From IMG/VR virus record IMGVR_UViG_3300021399_000096: a DNA stretch of 64,000 bases; one strand, 5' to 3'. Of this stretch, positions 34,839-53,069 are shown in pieces (the stretch's first letter is position 1; the number at the start of each line of letters is the position of its first letter). Made by a program: the position numbers and the translations under genes. The notes beneath the pieces are model-generated. The model was not told the origin of the DNA. It worked only from the letters and a program-made list of their open reading frames with translations, and searched no databases. Source of the stretch: a virus. Taxonomy: Duplodnaviria; Heunggongvirae; Uroviricota; Caudoviricetes.

Positions 34839-35397
34839 TACTCCACTCTCCTATAATACCAAGATTATTTTCTATACTTACTAAATATTTCTTTCCAGTT
34901 TGAATATCTGGATCTTTTAACCAAGTTACACTAGACGGAACATTTAATGTTGTAGCAACAGATCCGCTAGTGAACTAAAACATATATTCATTTACGATAT
35001 CCGAATTTCCGGGATTTAATGTAACTGTCAAACTAGTTTTTGTTCCAAACATATACATTTTATTTGGATCTAGTGCAAATATACTAGAAGAATCATCGGT
35101 TTTGTCAACAACTGGTGTAGATGCAATAGCAAATAATGATACGTCTGGAACTGATTCTACAACATCGCTGTCAATTGTAGGATCATTTGTTGGATATAAT
35201 TCATTATGAGTCCAAATATATTTTGAACCCTTATTATAACCATACGGCTCATCTTCAAATGTTGCAGTTAAAAAAACTATAGAATCTTGATTAACTTTAG
35301 ACTGCACACTTGGTTTTATAGAAGTTATATCAAGTGTAGAACCAGAAACATTAAAAACATTATGAAGGCCAGTAGCTTTAACAAATTTTTTTGCCAT
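34831..35397 (-). CDS. fibre-associated protein (188 aa, code 15)
   Basis: EYMF(TAG)FTSGSVATTLNVPSSVTW matches the common EYMFQFTSG motif. Its stop overlaps the next start. Confidence 0.7.
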
Positions 35398-35542
35398 AGT
35401 TATAAATTTATTGCATTAAATTTTTATATTTATTTATAAAATAAATTAATAAAAATAAATAGAGTTTTGCATATTAATATATATTTAAATGTATATTTAA
35501 TACTATAAATATATGCATAATAAATGATATGGAAAATTTAAA

Positions 35543-36861: not shown

Positions 36862-37261
36862 GGGCTCATTTGGCTTTGACTGCATTGATTTTGATTTGTA
36901 AGCATGTGACGCATTGAAGATACGCGTCTAATAAATGTTCTTTGAGAATAATTTAAATGGCGAAGAAAATTACGCTATGGCAGCTTGATCCGAAGTATAG
37001 TAAGACGGCTTAAGATTTTGCAAGGCAGAATCGACATACATCGCTCAATCCCATAATCCAAGGGTGAATTGATATAGTGGTGCAGGAATATTGGATATTA
37101 GAATTTGCGATGCTATTAAACAAATTCGAAACTATAATAGCTTAAGATATTGTTGGCTAGTTTGAGGTTTAGCAATATACAAAAATTAAATCAAACTAAA
37201 CATGTAGAAAGCAGATTGGAACATATGCAACACGTGGGTTCGATCCCCACTGAGTCCACCC
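36862..37261 (+). ncRNA. ssrA: tmRNA
   Basis: Acceptor stem GGGCTCA/TGAGTCC with the G3:U alanyl determinant, T-arm GTGGGTTCGATCCCCAC, discriminator A. Tag ORF 36959-36988 encodes (A)GEENYAMAA-TGA. Confidence 0.93.
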
Positions 37262-37681: not shown

Positions 37682-37907
37682 AATTAAAACAATAATTTTT
37701 ATATTATTGCTCGTTTTTATCAATTATTGTTTTCATTATATTTATTAAAAACCTTTTATAATATAAATATAGAATATAATTTAAAAATAAAGAAAGTTGC
37801 GGATTTATATGGGTGAGCAATATACATTAACTGATAAAAAGCGAGATAAAGATAATCCAAATTAAAAAGTTGATTAATAAACAAAATATCAGTTAAAGAC
37901 AGATTAG

Positions 37908-37941
37908 AAAAATGCCACTAATTAATTTTAGTGGCATTTTT
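37908..37941. terminator. bidirectional terminator
   Basis: AAAAATGCCACTAA / TTAGTGGCATTTTT. Confidence 0.7.
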
Positions 37942-38091
37942 AATTAATTACTTTTCTTTAACAGAATTATTTTTTCTCTTTCATTTCTTTTATTCTTCTT
38001 AACATATCTTGATAAGGAGACTTTTCTTTCAATTTTTCTAAAAATGTTTTTTCTTTTTCCATATCTTTATTTGTTTATTTAATTATAATTA

Positions 38092-40494
38092 TTACTGTGC
38101 ATCTTCTACTGTCCAATTAGTAGGTATACCATGACCGCCAGTTTTCCAACTTGTTGCATCTAGATGCTTAACAAATGTACCAGCACTTGCGACACCATGT
38201 ACCCACTCGTATGTGCAAGCGGTTGCCGATATATTAGACGCAAGGCATTTAATGTAATTTAAACTTGTACAATCATAGAACATACAAAAATAACACTGAT
38301 TTGTTAATGTAGCCGCATGTAACTCTGGCGCAGTTTCTAAATTACTACAATTACGGAACATATTACTATAACAACCAGTTGCTAATTCAGTAGCAGGTAA
38401 TTCTGGCGCAGTAATTAAACTTGTACAACGATTAAACATACTAGCATAGCAATCATATGCTAATGTAGTAGCAGGCAATTCTGGTGCTGTTGTTAAACTA
38501 CTACAACCATCGAACATGCCTTGATAACAACCATATGATAATGTAGTTGCAGGTAACTCAGGTGCTGTTATTAAACTAGTACAACCAGCGAACATACCTT
38601 GATAACAATACTGTGCTAATGTAGTAGCAGGCAATTCAGGTGCAGTTGTTAAACTTGTACAATTGTAGAACATATTATTATAACAACCAGTTGCTAATTC
38701 AGTAGCAGGTAATTCTGGCGCAGTTGTTAAACAAGTACAACCATTGAACATTCCATCATAGCAATAACTTGTTAATGTAGTAGCAGGCAAACAATAATGC
38801 CCTGAATTTTGATTTATTGGTAAAATGTTCATTAAATCATTGTCATTAACTTTTGTTCCAGCAAATAAGCCATGCAATCCACCGTCAGCAAAAGTTTCAT
38901 CGCCTGAAAAGTCAATATTTGTACAGTCTGGTAATAAATTTGTATTACTAAACATACCATAATAGCAACTATATGCTAATGTAGTTGCTGGTAATTCAGG
39001 CGCAGTTGTTAAACTAGTACAACCATCGAACATCCTATTATAACAACTCTCTGCTAATGTAGTTGCTGGTAATTCAGGCGCAGTTGTTAAACTAGTACAA
39101 TTAAGAAACATATAATACCCACAATATCGTTTTAATGGCGTATCTTGGTTTTCATAATTCCACAAATAGTTACAATTACCATCAGCTGCAATCTTACCAG
39201 TCATTTTAAATTGTGTATAGTTACTAGTAGTATTATTTGAACTAAGAATACCCCTAATATACACGGTATCACCACTATTTGCTAATGTAATTGTTGTTGT
39301 AGTTGTCATAGAAGACCAATTACTCAAGTCTCTACTATACTCTAAAGTTTGGTAACTACTTTTTCGTGCTAAACCGATTGTACTATTCGCTTCTTGTGCG
39401 GTGAATTTAACTGGTAAATAATCTTTAACTACCCATCCAGTAGGTATGCCATCAACACTATCTGTAAGCCAATTTGCAGCCTCAGTATGTTTTACAAATG
39501 TACCACTACTTGCTACGCCTGATACCCAATTAGTAGTACTATTATTCTGATTTATTCCATTTATTGCAAGACATTTAATGTAATTTAAACGACTGCAACC
39601 TCTGAACATACTATTATAACAATAATTTGCTAATGTAATTGCAGGTAATTCTGGCGCTGTTGTTAAACTAGTACAATCTCGGAACATAGCATAATAACAA
39701 TTACTTGTTAATGCAGTAGCATGTAATTCTGGTGCAGTTGTTAAACTTGTACACCCATAGAACATGTATTGATAACAATAATCTGATAATATAGTGGCAG
39801 GTAATTCTGGTGCTGTTGTTAAACTAGTACAATTTCTGAACATATAAAAGTAACAATAATTTGCTAAAGTGGTAGCAGGTAACTCGGGGGCCGATGTTAA
39901 ACTCGTACACCCATAGAACATAGCATAATAACAATTACTTGCTAATGTAGTAGCAGGCAAACCAGGTGATGTTGTTAAACTAGTACAACCAAAGAACATA
40001 TCTTGATAACAATTACTTGCTAACGCAGTTGCTGGTAATTCAGGCGCAGTAATTAAACTAGTACAATTATAGAACATATAATATCCACAATATTTCTTCA
40101 AAGGCGCGGCCAAATTATTATAGTCCCATAAAGCATTACAATTACCACTTACAGCAATTTTACCTGTCATTTTAAATTGTGTGTGGTCGGAACCTGTATT
40201 ATCTCCATTTAATATACCAGCGATATAGCAATTATCCCCACTATTGGTTAAAGTAATAGTGGTGTCAGTCGCCATCTTTTTCCACTGTTTCCCATTCGTA
40301 CTATACCATAGTTTTTGATTGGTACTCAATTTCTCCAAGCCAATAGTACTATTTGCTTGCTGAGCGGTAAATGTGACATAGTTTGTAATAGGAATTGATG
40401 CTGTATATATCAGTTCATCACCATGATATATACTAACAACCTCATTATCTCCTAAATATATAGATCCTATTTGATTATTTCCAAATAATAACAT
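38092..40494 (-). CDS. LRR-like solenoid protein with 26-aa TTAPELPATTLAxxCYxxMFxxCTSL repeats (internally duplicated)
   Basis: Two halves each start FTAQ(Q/E)ANSTIGL, followed by repeat arrays. Confidence 0.8.
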   Translation of the reverse strand: MLLFGNNQIGSIYLGDNEVVSIYHGDELIYTASIPITNYVTFTAQQANSTIGLEKLSTNQKLWYSTNGKQWKKMATDTTITLTNSGDNCYIAGILNGDNTGSDHTQFKMTGKIAVSGNCNALWDYNNLAAPLKKYCGYYMFYNCTSLITAPELPATALASNCYQDMFFGCTSLTTSPGLPATTLASNCYYAMFYGCTSLTSAPELPATTLANYCYFYMFRNCTSLTTAPELPATILSDYCYQYMFYGCTSLTTAPELHATALTSNCYYAMFRDCTSLTTAPELPAITLANYCYNSMFRGCSRLNYIKCLAINGINQNNSTTNWVSGVASSGTFVKHTEAANWLTDSVDGIPTGWVVKDYLPVKFTAQEANSTIGLARKSSYQTLEYSRDLSNWSSMTTTTTITLANSGDTVYIRGILSSNNTTSNYTQFKMTGKIAADGNCNYLWNYENQDTPLKRYCGYYMFLNCTSLTTAPELPATTLAESCYNRMFDGCTSLTTAPELPATTLAYSCYYGMFSNTNLLPDCTNIDFSGDETFADGGLHGLFAGTKVNDNDLMNILPINQNSGHYCLPATTLTSYCYDGMFNGCTCLTTAPELPATELATGCYNNMFYNCTSLTTAPELPATTLAQYCYQGMFAGCTSLITAPELPATTLSYGCYQGMFDGCSSLTTAPELPATTLAYDCYASMFNRCTSLITAPELPATELATGCYSNMFRNCSNLETAPELHAATLTNQCYFCMFYDCTSLNYIKCLASNISATACTYEWVHGVASAGTFVKHLDATSWKTGGHGIPTNWTVEDAQ

Positions 40495-40513
40495 ATGCGT
40501 ATAATATTCATTT

Positions 40514-42799
40514 TTATGACTATTCCTCGGTTATTATATATAAAGTATTAGAATCATGCGAACTAATTGCATCATACTCCTCTTGAGTTCCTTTCCAGAA
40601 ATTAGTGAATATATTGGTTGATGGTGGTAATATATTTTGTGTGTCATTCCCGTAATATCGTTCTTCATCCGCACTAAATGCTTTAACATTATTCATCGCA
40701 TTATTGCCAAATATAAACCCGCTTCCATTTATTTTATTACCAGCCGCATTTGCGCCAAATGTTCCGAATGACGCTTCCGCGCCTTCTATAGTATTATTAA
40801 AACAGTAACATCCCAAATCTTTATCACTTACTGTTGATACATTTGATAAGTCCTCAAACACATTAAAGAAAACGTCACCATTTAAACACTGAACATTTAA
40901 TGACATCCCTTCTAATAAGCATGTTGGTTTTATTTTATTATTCTTGCATATCACCATCGAACTAATTCCTTCTTTTAATCCAATGCTAGCAGCGACTGTT
41001 GCATCATGCCAATCCCCTGTTGCTAAATCTTTTAGTGCAAATGTATAGAAATAAGCTGCATATCGGCCATTAGGTCTTCCATCGTATAAGAAATTAAATC
41101 TGTTATTTTCATCATCATAACATAAATCTGGATAATTTGAGTTGTTAAATTCATTTCGTCCGAATTTTATATTTTTAAAATCATAAGGACACTCATTATT
41201 CCATTCATCTTTCATGTAGTATACAACGCCTTTATAGCTTGAAGCATCTTTAACTTCAGAAATCGGGAATTGATATGGTATAAATTCTACTGTATCTTTA
41301 CGAGTCTGGAATAAGTTGCATAATTCACCAACTTGTGGTAGTTCTTCAGTTAGTGCACCAATCGTTTGACCCTACATAGTAACTGTCCATGCAGTATTTT
41401 TTGTTGATAGCATATCTTGTGTAAAAGTAAATGGTTGTTGTAATGAATCGTCACTCATAACAAAATATCCAGTGTCACCGACTACAGGAAATTCCGTTGT
41501 AAATTTAATAACTCCGGCATATCCTTCTGGAAATTCGCCAAGTAAATTATAATGATAATATGTTACTCCGCTTTCTTCTTCACCACCTTGTCCATCATAT
41601 GCAAACCGATAAGTTGTGCCTTCAATAGGAACATTTACAACCCATTTGCCATATGTATCATATGTTTCATCTCTTGATAGAGTAATACGTTGTCCTTCTG
41701 CCGATATGACAATACCTGTTTTTGTTGAAATCCATTCAAAGCGATGATCATTCAGATCCAACGAATATTTTAATTCCCATGCATTAAGATTACAATTTTT
41801 AAAGTAATCTCCGCCTTCAGTATGCGTCTCTTCTAGTGTATCTAAAATGTTAAATTCAATAATACCTGGGCCACCCATTGCGGCTGCATCCATATATGCA
41901 GTTTCTCCTGCCTTAATATCAGAATTTAATGTAAATATTTTTGCCGTATCTGGCATATAAGGGTCCCAAGATGTAACATCACCAAAAGATGAGTCGACAT
42001 CAAATTGTCTTTGAAGACATTCTATTATTATTGACCATCCAACTTGGCAATCTGTCATTCTTTCATCTTCAGAAGTATTAGTGTCGTCTATTGATTTATT
42101 TCTAATCATGAAGCCATATATATCTGCCTCGCCACCTGCACCCATGTCAGAGAAAAATTTAAATTTAGTTATTTCTGTAACCTCATGCTCCGGTTCTTCA
42201 GGAACGTGATTCATTGGTTTGGCATCTTGGGATAATGTATGTTCATCAATGGCCTCGATAACAATATCATATTTATTGTTTACACTTTTAGCATACATTG
42301 CTGACATCATACCCTCAACTTTACATTCATAATCAGTGATTCGATATTTGCATCCTGGAGTTAATTCTCCATTATCACACATATTTCGAAGTTCAGATAC
42401 TGTTGTTTCAACAAACTGAGGTGCATTGACACTCTGTTCAATAGCAGTTTTATAATCTGTTCCTGCAGGAATTCCAGATTCTTCACTCCATTCAACATTA
42501 AGACTGCTATTTAATCCTAAAGTGTTTGCCATTGTTGTTATAGCAGTTGCTATTACTTCTTCATCTTCTTTGATAATTTCATCATAACTATTAGTCGGAT
42601 ACAAAGTATTCATTGTCCAGATATATTTAGTTCCATCTGGATAACCATATAGTGTATCTTCACTCGCAGTTAAAAACAATATGCTGTTTTGATTGATTTC
42701 TGATTGCATCTCTTCCTTTATAGAAGTTATATCAAGATCAGAATCTGACACATTAAAAACATTATGCAACCCTGTGATTTTGACAAATTTTTTAATCAT
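40514..42799 (-). CDS. tail fibre-like protein (code 15)
   Basis: The 475-aa and 231-aa ORFs join via TAG 41372. Motifs PGCKYRITDY, KGVVYYMKDEWNNECPYDFKNI, C-terminal WKGTQEEYDAI...LYII. Confidence 0.75.
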
Positions 42800-42832
42800 A
42801 TAATTAATAAAAATATTAGTTTTTATTGTTTA

Positions 42833-43879
42833 TTAAGACGCTAACGCGTCTCCAAAGTGTAGGCAAACAAAAGCACGACACTCACCATCCTTACCGCCAT
42901 TGTACATGGTGCCACTGCCTCCTAAGTCGAACGCTTCATCGTGGCTACCACACTAAGAGCTAGACCAATAATCGTAGCTATTCGAATACAACAATGCACA
43001 ACATAATTTACTTCTAAAATTAATACCAGTATGGTCGCTGTCATAATCTTCATTTAGTGAACTACCTTTATAGTGATCAGGATCGACGGTTTGTAAATTA
43101 AACCAAATTTCTCTGTTTTGTACAATAGATGGAACAAAACAACGACCAGCTACTCCAGGAACATTTATTCCACCTGGGGAATTAAAGTTTTTAACAGCGG
43201 TGAATAATGGAGATTCACTAAGATATGCATGTTGATATATAGCTTTACTTGCTTTAGCACCATCGTTTGTTCTAAATGCGCCAATAATAAAATCATTATA
43301 TAAATGATCTACTCTGGTATCGTTTGTTGCCCATTTAAGATTTTTAAATGTAACCGAACCTGTTTCAGAATTACGTTCTTGCCAATTTAAAACATGCCAT
43401 AAGCCTTTACCAACACAAACTGCAATTGGTATACCATGAGTAGTAGGAATATCTGCACGTAAAATAACATTATTACTATTAACATCCTTTCCGATCCAAT
43501 TTTCATCATTGATAAAGAGCATTCCATTACTATCTGAACAATTATCATCACCATTTGGATATCTGAAATATGCTGATGTATCTGTAGCACCTACACACAA
43601 TCCATTTGGGAATTCTTTATAATTCCATTCTAAATTATCAGGATCTCCATTCCATGCTTTGAATACGCCATTATCATATGACAATACTGCACCTACAGTA
43701 TTATAGTGATTTAATTCTTCTGCATCAAATAAACTTGCAAATTCTTTAACACCTTTAAAACTAGTAATAACATTATTAACTTTTAAAGTTTCATTAGTGC
43801 CGTTCATAACAATTGCATTTGGCAATAAATCATTTATTGTATCTGTTTCAGATTTAATAAGTTGAATATGTTCTGTCAT
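42833..43879 (-). CDS. C-type-lectin-fold (DUF1566/Lcl-like) receptor-binding protein with DGR-like variable C-terminus (348 aa, code 15)
   Basis: FVPSIVQN...YWSSS(TAG)CGSHDEAFDLGGSGTMYNGGKDGECRAFVCLHF. The GC-rich tail is visible only with TAG read-through. Confidence 0.7.
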
Positions 43880-43894
43880 AATTTTTATTTTTAT

Positions 43895-43955
43895 TTTTTA
43901 TTATTTTTAGTAATCTATTCAGAAACCAATCTGAATAGACTTTAGATTAAATTGG
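43895..43955. repeat. about 60-bp block identical to 49474-49534, containing a 10-bp hairpin
   Basis: TCTATTCAGA-AACCAA-TCTGAATAGA just downstream of both LRR gene stops. Confidence 0.85.
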
Positions 43956-45149
43956 AGTATCACCATCTGCACAATGAACTACTGTTGCTGGAACATTACG
44001 ATTCCACTCATTTCCTTTAGATATAGAATTATATTGAGCTTTTGTTCCTGTATATGAGATAGAAATCAAACTATTGCAACCAAAGAAAGCATACATTCCA
44101 ATGCTTGCGATGCTATCGGGAATCTCGATAGAGGTCAGATTGGTGCACCAACTAAAAGCCTAAAATTCAATGATTGTAACGCTATTAGGAATCTCGATAG
44201 AGGTCAAACTGGGGCAATAATTGAAAGCGTTCGCTCCAATACTTGTGACACTATTGGGAATTGTTACGGCAGTTAAACCATGACAATAAGCAAAAGCACT
44301 ATCTCCAATGCGTATAATATTATTAGGAATAATTGTGTTTTGACACCCTACGATAAGCATGTTGGATACAGTTTCTATAATTGCGTTACAATTATTACGG
44401 CTATCATATATTGAATTCCCATTTTCAACAATAATAGAGGCCAAACTGCTACAATATGCAAAAGCCTTATCTCCGATGCTTGTGACACTATTGGGAATGG
44501 TTACCGAGGTCAGACTGCTGCACCAACTAAAAGCACCATTCCTAATGCTCGTGACACGATTGGTGATAATTAAGTCGTTGGTCAAACTGCTGCAATTCTC
44601 GAAAGCATACTTTCCAATGCTTGTGACGCTATTAGGAATCGTCACTGAGGTCAAACCGCTGCAGCGTTGGAATGCATATTCTCCGATGCTTTCGACATCT
44701 GTTTCAAATTTAATAACACCTTTCCCAGTATTTGGATCAAAATCATTAGAAATAATAGTTGGCAAAGAGCTTGGCCTATATGGTTCAACTTTACTTGTTG
44801 CTGTATATTTGATTATATCATTTATTTCTTTAATAATAGCAACACCATTCTCAGCAACTATTTTGCAATTCTCCTAATTGCATTCTAAGAACTAATAATT
44901 TTCTTTAATATAGCAAATAAATGGAATGGTTTCAATAATATATCCATCTGCATCATTTAATGTTTCAAACACTATATTAACAGCCTCATGAATAATAATC
45001 TAACCATCCTCAATAATTAGCATTTTATTAGGTTTATTATTAAATAAAACCTATCCATTTTCTTTAATATAACTGGTGAATGGAATATCATTGATTATAT
45101 ACCCATTAGCGTCATTTAATGTTTCAAAATATTTTATATTTTCTTTCAT
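43947..45149 (-). CDS. BspA-type LRR protein A (400 aa, code 15)
   Basis: IPNSVTSIG repeats and YDSRNNCNAIIET insert. The N-terminal half is TAG-rich. Confidence 0.85.
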
Positions 45150-52619: not shown

Positions 52620-53069
52620 ATGAAAGAATCAAAATTTAGATATATTGAGAATAGAAAAGCTAAGCATAACTATTATTTTATAGATGAATATACAGCTGGC
52701 ATTTCATTAATTGGGTCTGAAGTTAAATCTATTAGAGCCAGTTGGGTTGATTTATCTGAATCATATTGTATATTCAATAAATCTGGTGAATTAATTCTTA
52801 AAAATTGCTATATATACAAATACAACAATATTGTATATACTCGTGAAGAAAATGTTGACAGAAAGTTATTATTAACCAAAAAGGAATTAAAGAAACTTAA
52901 AAAAGACAGTGAACAAACAGGATATACTATTATTCCTATTGCTATTATTGTTAATGATCCTGGATTTATTAAATTCAAAATTGCTTTATGTAAAGGTAAA
53001 CATGAATATGATAAACGGGAAGTTATAAAGAAAAGAGATTTAGAAAGAGAACATAAAAATTTTAAATAA
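52620..53069 (+). CDS. smpB: SsrA-binding protein
   Basis: ENRKAKHNY, AGISLIGSEVKSIR, RKLLL.KKE, GKHEYDKR. No TAG codon. Confidence 0.93.
   Translation: MKESKFRYIENRKAKHNYYFIDEYTAGISLIGSEVKSIRASWVDLSESYCIFNKSGELILKNCYIYKYNNIVYTREENVDRKLLLTKKELKKLKKDSEQTGYTIIPIAIIVNDPGFIKFKIALCKGKHEYDKREVIKKRDLEREHKNFK

Follow-up and report, generated by a model that had tools for sequence, protein, structure and literature searches.

The question raised by this locus is whether the 3′ tip of one tail-region gene is the variable repeat (VR) of a diversity-generating retroelement (DGR) and, if so, whether that repeat is still rewritten. The gene (42833..43879, minus strand) lies within the 64,000-nucleotide stretch of phage DNA analyzed here (the window) and encodes P0001, a 348-aa lectin-like tail-region protein. 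Its reading frame, which ends in the tandem stop TAATAA, is open only when TAG is read as Gln, as are many other long frames in the window. A protein identical to P0001 was found on contigs of 320 kb (ENA ERZ28612948 scaffold_8) and 484 kb, and the source is a putative Lak-type, TAG=Gln megaphage with a genome of roughly 0.3-0.5 Mb. A sequence-only reading had drawn attention to the GC-rich tip of this gene, to its C-terminal peptide with an in-frame TAG and to a GC hairpin at its end. All three were present as described: the peptide is YWSSSQCGSHDEAF to RAFVCLHFGDALAS, the GC count of 62/120 over positions 42841-42960 was exact, and no 120-nt stretch of the window exceeds this value (0.03% of such stretches reach it).

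A 140-nt VR was delimited at 42855..42994 (minus strand). It is homologous from end to end to the template repeats (TRs) of related phages, and aligns without gaps to three TRs of the same clade. Where all three of these TRs have A, the window VR was changed at 18 of 44 sites, and where they agree on another base it was changed at 2 of 75 (Fisher p = 1e-7). Measured against single clade TRs, the window VR differed at 22-24 of the 49-52 adenine sites of the TR and at 8-10 of the 88-91 remaining sites, and differences between VRs and TRs spared third codon positions. Most adenine changes in the window VR (18-20 of 22-24) are A-to-G, which accounts for the rise in GC content from the 31-34% of the clade TRs to 46% (window mean, 29%) and thereby fully explains the GC bump. 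The bias toward G is strong; by comparison, VRs of relatives with a cassette were T-rich or mixed, with 11 T, 1 G, and 1 C at changed adenines in L037 and 10 T, 6 G, and 3 C in L012. Selection in favor of Gly, Asp, Ser, or Cys, or a lineage-specific cause, might account for the bias.

The invariant 3′ end of the VR/TR homology, CGTGCTTTTGTTTGCCTACACTT (42855..42877, minus strand), occupies the position of an IMH-like homing signal and carries no A-to-N change in the window. It is nearly unchanged across all VRs and TRs, which diverge directly after ...CACTT. The hairpin AGACGC-GTTA-GCGTCT (42836..42851, minus strand) starts 3 nt past the end of the homology, with arms at 42851-42846 (AGACGC) and 42841-42836 (GCGTCT) around a GTTA loop. 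Folded as DNA, it has a free energy of -7.7 kcal/mol (z -2.6 versus shuffles), and compensatory stem changes were found in its counterpart in L029/L030 (GGTGC-GTAA-GCACC), members of a sister clade. The hairpin follows every VR but no TR, the TR copies running on into different sequence, so that the element placed at the VR 3′ end by the sequence-only reading proved to be both conserved and specific to VRs. A homing end and a GC inverted repeat are features of the VRs of characterized DGRs (Wu et al., 2018, PMC5758913). Both elements of the window would act in homing, as their counterparts do in phage BPP-1.

An ordinary receptor-binding loop made hypervariable by positive selection, with a GC bump due to chance and a hairpin acting as terminator, would be a very improbable account of these features. 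It could appeal to the lack of any Pfam, PHROG, or NCBIfam match for P0001 and to the location of the hairpin at the gene end, a possible terminator position. However, the changes fall on TR-adenine positions (p = 1e-7) and spare third codon positions, the hairpin is not followed by a T-run and occurs after VRs but not after TRs, and orthologs are accompanied by a TR, a reverse transcriptase (RT), and Avd, with strictly adenine-only VR/TR mismatches. Alignment to these relatives confirmed 42855-42994 as a genuine DGR VR, in line with what had been proposed for it.

A scan of the window revealed no second YWSSS-type target. A second rise in GC content (43-47%) was observed at about 44440-44740, just upstream of the target, within a BspA-type LRR gene (43947-45149, minus strand). 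By the tests used it is not a DGR target, since it coincides with LRR_5 repeats and contains no YWSSS-type motif.

In protein searches, orthologs of P0001 (62-90% identical) were found on contigs of up to 498 kb. Among orthologs that are 80-88% identical overall, only the approximately 30 residues between WSSSQ and R-FVCLHF are hypervariable; this stretch is scrambled in every ortholog aligned and is Asn-rich in P0005. In a sister clade (47% identity) the pattern is the same, with variation confined to the tip. Searches of P0001 against Pfam (none at E ≤ 1), PHROGs, and NCBIfam gave no match, nor did megablast and tblastn searches for the target among GenBank phages.

The protein had been described as the product of a C-type-lectin fiber gene. 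An exhaustive profile search supplied the 33 aligned sequences for an AlphaFold model, which reached a pLDDT of 84 (a model from 15 sequences, with a pLDDT of 40, was set aside) and was compared with 48,161 chains by VIA-align. The highest-ranking structures were BACOVA_04982 (4eps; Z 11.4 over 181 residues) and the C-terminal domain of Legionella Lcl (8q4e; Z 8.7 over 121 of 131 residues). Among DGR variable proteins, TvpA (2y3c; Z 6.2), Mtd (1yu0; Z 5.0), and TaqVP (5vf4; Z 4.3) were matched, and further matches included FGE-like enzymes and dozens of animal CTLDs. Foldseek against the PDB gave weak matches (best E = 0.2), and the only match of a PDB sequence-profile search was judged to be due to chance. 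Pfam Lcl_C/DUF1566 (PF07603) was detected in 14 of the 33 aligned relatives at E ≤ 0.1 (best 1.8e-5), and the P-S-x-x-E and YWSSS motifs of the family alignment are presumably shared with Lcl_C. Unlike Lcl and BACOVA_04982, its best structural matches, P0001 itself lies below Pfam detection, and sequence identity to the two is 14-16%; to our knowledge, no DGR is known for Lcl. The predicted structure supported a C-type-lectin fold for P0001. The lectin part of the original description therefore stood, but P0001 is small, a lectin-like protein of the tail region and not a long fiber, probably with a receptor-binding role.

The in-frame TAG (42953..42955, minus strand; codon 309) lies inside the VR. 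The sequence-only reading had regarded such codons as outcomes of A-to-N mutagenesis that, under code 15, yield Gln instead of a stop and so widen the usable sequence space; neither idea held. TAG309 is already present in all three clade TRs (L012, L010, and L037) and in every clade VR seen, its counterpart in the sister clade is CAG in VR and TR alike, and 90% or more of 33 family members have Gln in its alignment column. These alignments identify TAG309 as a templated and selected Gln codon, not a product of mutagenesis. Its adenine is mutable in principle and was changed in none of the VRs seen. Adenine changes could produce TAG at just one further TR codon, AAG (Lys330), which is likewise invariant, and the gain in sequence space from code 15 is therefore marginal. 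The occurrence of TAG in this clade and CAG in the sister clade, within a templated repeat, provides what we consider good positional evidence for TAG=Gln. The further suggestion that the VR is invisible under code 11 was borne out. Translation of 42833-43879 (minus strand) with that code stops at codon 309 and yields 308 aa, and the database proteins P0003, P0004, and P0007 terminate at ...YWSSS, directly before the VR. Standard-code gene calling thus hides the VR by cutting the protein directly before it.

Cassettes in related phages showed what accompanies such a target when the system is complete. There, the target with its VR and hairpin is followed by a spacer of approximately 270 nt, a TR on the same strand, and then convergent RT and Avd genes. 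In L012, a 140-nt block occurs twice, once at the gene 3′ end and again, on the same strand, as an A-rich copy approximately 410 nt further on. VR/TR mismatches in this pair affect 19 of 52 A sites and none of 88 other sites. The A-rich copy is followed by a hairpin with a 15-bp stem (z = -8.6), a strong terminator hairpin, then by the 3′ end of the convergent RT gene and an Avd-like gene. The cassette is intact in L036-L038 (contigs of 37, 107, and 204 kb), with an RT of 468 aa whose gene contains one TAG, an Avd of 133 aa encoded with five TAG, and mismatches, counted in L037, at 13 of 49 A sites and at none of 91 elsewhere. The sister clade (L029/L030) has the same layout and an intact RT of 476 aa, with mismatches in L030 at 18 of 45 A sites and at none of 87 others. 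The intact cassette proteins of the clade are P0068 and P0069. The relatives' RT carries the motifs GNLSSQ-FAN and YGRYVDD and matches Pfam RVT_1 and a PHROG RT family at 1e-63; their Avd matches NCBIfam DivGenRetAVD (6e-5) and, weakly, the PHROG family 'Avd protein of DGR' (2e-5).

Except in layout, the relatives' system is a textbook DGR. As in the BPP-1 DGR (mtd VR, avd, TR, brt), the VR in the window lies at the 3′ end of the gene for a tail protein with a predicted C-type-lectin fold, and a short GC hairpin with a 4-nt loop comes after its invariant 3′ end. The relatives likewise have an AAY-rich TR, adenine-only VR/TR differences, an Avd, and an RT with GxxxSQ and YxDD motifs. Unlike the avd-TR-brt order of BPP-1, their TR lies downstream of the target, on the strand of the target, and converges on RT-Avd, and their Avd and RT genes overlap with no TR in between. 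Two further differences are that genes here use TAG=Gln, with one such codon within TR and VR, and that the window itself lacks TR, RT, and Avd.

This last absence, claimed from the beginning, was confirmed for TR and RT in the 64-kb window. Neither blastn (word size 7) nor an adenine-masked ungapped scan of both strands found a TR, and tblastn with the cognate RTs of L010 and L029 found nothing below E = 3. Comparison by blastn at the DNA level also revealed no counterpart in the window of L010 10950-12798, the cassette segment that includes avd. A template copy differing only at adenines beside an RT, which had been put forward as the check on the VR, was therefore not found in the window but does occur in the relatives L012, L030, and L037. 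The relative L001/L008, which shares the junction of the window, lies within a syntenic 380-kb IMG/VR record (G001), and this record contained no TR-like copy and no RT; G001 is 76% complete, and the search covered all but approximately 118 kb of its 498-kb parent contig. In a peptide-pattern scan of metagenome contigs, RTs reached 39% identity at most and none lay on Ga0310694_10000001, the 498-kb contig that carries the L008 ortholog, and RT-based scans of IMG/VR and metagenome contigs found only RTs that were 34-39% identical. A scan of IMG/VR for the exact TR 3′ junction gave 0 matches with a pattern one T shorter than L037 and maybe too strict.

By blastn, the window ceases to match cassette-bearing relatives where the VR region ends, and homology begins again at 37924. 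The intervening segment (37925..42832, minus strand) contains two tail genes at the site where relatives have the spacer, TR, RT, and Avd together with a GT_PLOD/epimerase gene. These are a 761-aa gene with a Phage_tail_C tip (40514-42799, minus strand) and an 800-aa gene (38092-40494, minus strand). Beyond them, the GT_PLOD/epimerase gene persists as a 140-nt remnant of its 3′ end (37785..37924, minus strand), approximately 76% identical to L010 12798-12954, L008 12549-12705, and L012 4866-5026. The window thus holds the target half of a DGR only and is not a complete DGR. The first approximately 95 codons of the 761-aa tail gene (42540-42826, minus strand) recur at 35186-35404 (minus strand), at the start of another gene of the window, and also start the gene upstream of the target in L012 (79-80% nucleotide identity). 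Their recurrence suggests an N-terminal 'front end' module that tail-region proteins share.

The sequence-only reading had left two possibilities, a remotely targeted VR or a relic. The evidence favors the relic, since the cassette that lies directly downstream of the target in relatives is here replaced; remote targeting is retained at a lower probability. In relatives, TR RNA would presumably be reverse-transcribed with random misincorporation opposite adenines, and the cDNA would then replace the VR, with the invariant VR 3′ end and the adjoining GC hairpin serving as target signals, a mechanism modeled on that of BPP-1. In the lineage of the window, the TR-RT-Avd cassette and the neighboring glycosyltransferase/epimerase gene would have been swapped for two tail genes, leaving VR, homing end, and hairpin behind as an orphan. 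The VR would then be a frozen, heavily A-to-G-substituted allele that may still encode the ligand-binding face of the lectin domain and would be translated only when TAG is decoded as Gln. Because its cassette was replaced by tail genes, the VR is probably a fossil that no longer diversifies, and DGR activity has apparently been lost in this lineage.

Changes outside template adenines are consistent with such a loss. Invariant non-A sites were changed in 19 of 300 cases in cassette-less VRs and in 0 of 150 in VRs with a cassette (p = 7e-4); the window's own contribution (2 of 75) is not significant alone (p = 0.11). Four other assemblies, which derive from two or more sheep-rumen biosamples, carry the window locus, including the VR, either unchanged or with a single mismatch. 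This constancy is weak evidence for a relic, since L036-L038, with an intact cassette, also show a single VR in three assemblies, which possibly share data.

These observations also bear on the alternative of a live remote target, rewritten in trans by a cassette elsewhere in the approximately 0.5-Mb genome or in a co-infecting relative, which we consider unlikely though by no means negligible. VR, homing end, and hairpin are all intact in the window, so that a trans-acting cassette could still use them. DGR components act in trans, and non-adjacent targets have been documented (Wu et al., 2018, PMC5758913). The search for TR and RT in the phage of the window covered 64 kb of a genome of roughly 0.3-0.5 Mb, and RT genes approximately 40% identical to the clade RT occur on several 300-410-kb contigs. 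The cassette-less genomes with the same junction (window, L001, and L016) have VRs that differ from one another at 21-25 of 45 TR-A sites and at 6-13 of 83 others, and such mainly TR-A differences require independent losses, recombination, or continued diversification. Against these points, no TR or RT was found within the 64-kb window or in the syntenic 380-kb record, the VR was identical across four assemblies, and cassette-less VRs carry non-A changes, which fresh homing would erase. In every relative that has a cassette, moreover, it is immediately adjacent to the target, and phage-borne targets were hardly ever found more than 50 kb from the RT (Wu et al., 2018, PMC5758913). The specific proposition that the VR is rewritten in trans, from a cassette hundreds of kb off in a genome of approximately 0.5 Mb or from cassette-bearing relatives during co-infection, is held to be less probable still. 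If true, it would represent the first remote (>100 kb) phage-borne DGR target, or diversification shared between phages, and would explain why same-junction cassette-less genomes differ mainly at template adenines.

The remote targets known from other systems illustrate both sides of this comparison. Like the TvpA paralogs of Treponema denticola, the window has a VR with homing signals and no adjoining cassette, and TvpA itself (2y3c) was among the structures matched by P0001. For the remote targets known so far, a TR can be demonstrated at another place in the genome that carries them, and such targets belong to non-phage DGRs (PMC5758913). In contrast, no TR was found in the window, and the adjacent cassette of its relatives has been replaced.

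The RT genes approximately 40% identical to the clade RT are represented by P0097, P0100, P0112, P0115, P0137, P0159, and P0186, on contigs of 308-413 kb. Other DGR lineages may accordingly be common in megaphage-sized genomes.

A relic is in keeping with the condition of other cassettes in the family. In L010/L011, the target gene is fused directly to the TR. An interpretation of this copy as a normal VR beside an RT was rejected, because it has TR composition and the TR 3′ flank; given 33x coverage and two assemblers, the fusion represents a real deletion or, less likely, an assembly collapse. The L010 RT gene (L010 11014-12426, minus strand) contains two in-frame TGA codons where L012 has Gly (GGA) and Arg. 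L012 (3098-4700, minus strand) has a frameshift in RT just before YGRYVDD and a deletion with frameshift in Avd. The RT and Avd lesions of L010 and L012 indicate either decaying cassettes or contig errors. L013 retains approximately 210 nt of the spacer and has no TR at the expected place, and L035 shows a clean deletion of all sequence that would separate the hairpin from the counterpart of window position 37748. The different lesions of L010/L011, L012, L013, and L035 indicated that decay was independent in these relatives and that cassette loss is recurrent in the family.

Complete cassettes, degraded ones with additional non-A changes, and DGR genes with amber codons have been reported for zeta crAss-like phages (PMC12386605, with citations of earlier crAss studies). 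Like these recoded crAss-like phages, those studied here are of Bacteroidota type, come from gut or rumen, have reassigned a stop codon, carry amber codons inside DGR genes, and have lectin-type tail-fiber targets, with cassettes that are complete in some and degraded in others. They differ from them in belonging to a putative Lak-type megaphage group (contigs of 320-498 kb), in the clade of their RT, and in the position of a recoded codon inside TR and VR themselves.

Two further observations concern the surroundings of the locus. The window encodes a trans-translation pair, conserved in L008 and L010, that consists of a tmRNA gene (36862-37261, plus strand; 75 bits against Rfam RF00023, also found by ARAGORN) and SmpB (52620-53069, plus strand; 149 aa, Pfam 7.5e-45). 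On the 73-kb contig of L010, a TnpB/Cas12f-like gene (OrfB_IS605, Cas12f1-like_TNB; L010 1-996, minus strand) lies approximately 9 kb upstream of the target.

The locus reveals no new mechanism; it is of value for the series of decaying cassettes, for the recoded codon in TR and VR, and for the blind spot it exposes in annotation. In the literature searched, nothing was found on DGRs in Lak-type megaphages or on a DGR-diversified lectin-type tail protein in TAG-recoded rumen or gut megaphages. The relatives of the window indicate that DGR diversification of a lectin-type tail protein occurs in TAG-recoded rumen and gut megaphages. The family as a whole forms a natural series of intact, fused, frameshifted, partly deleted, and fully replaced cassettes, which is useful for studying how and why phages lose a DGR yet keep a 'frozen' receptor-binding allele.
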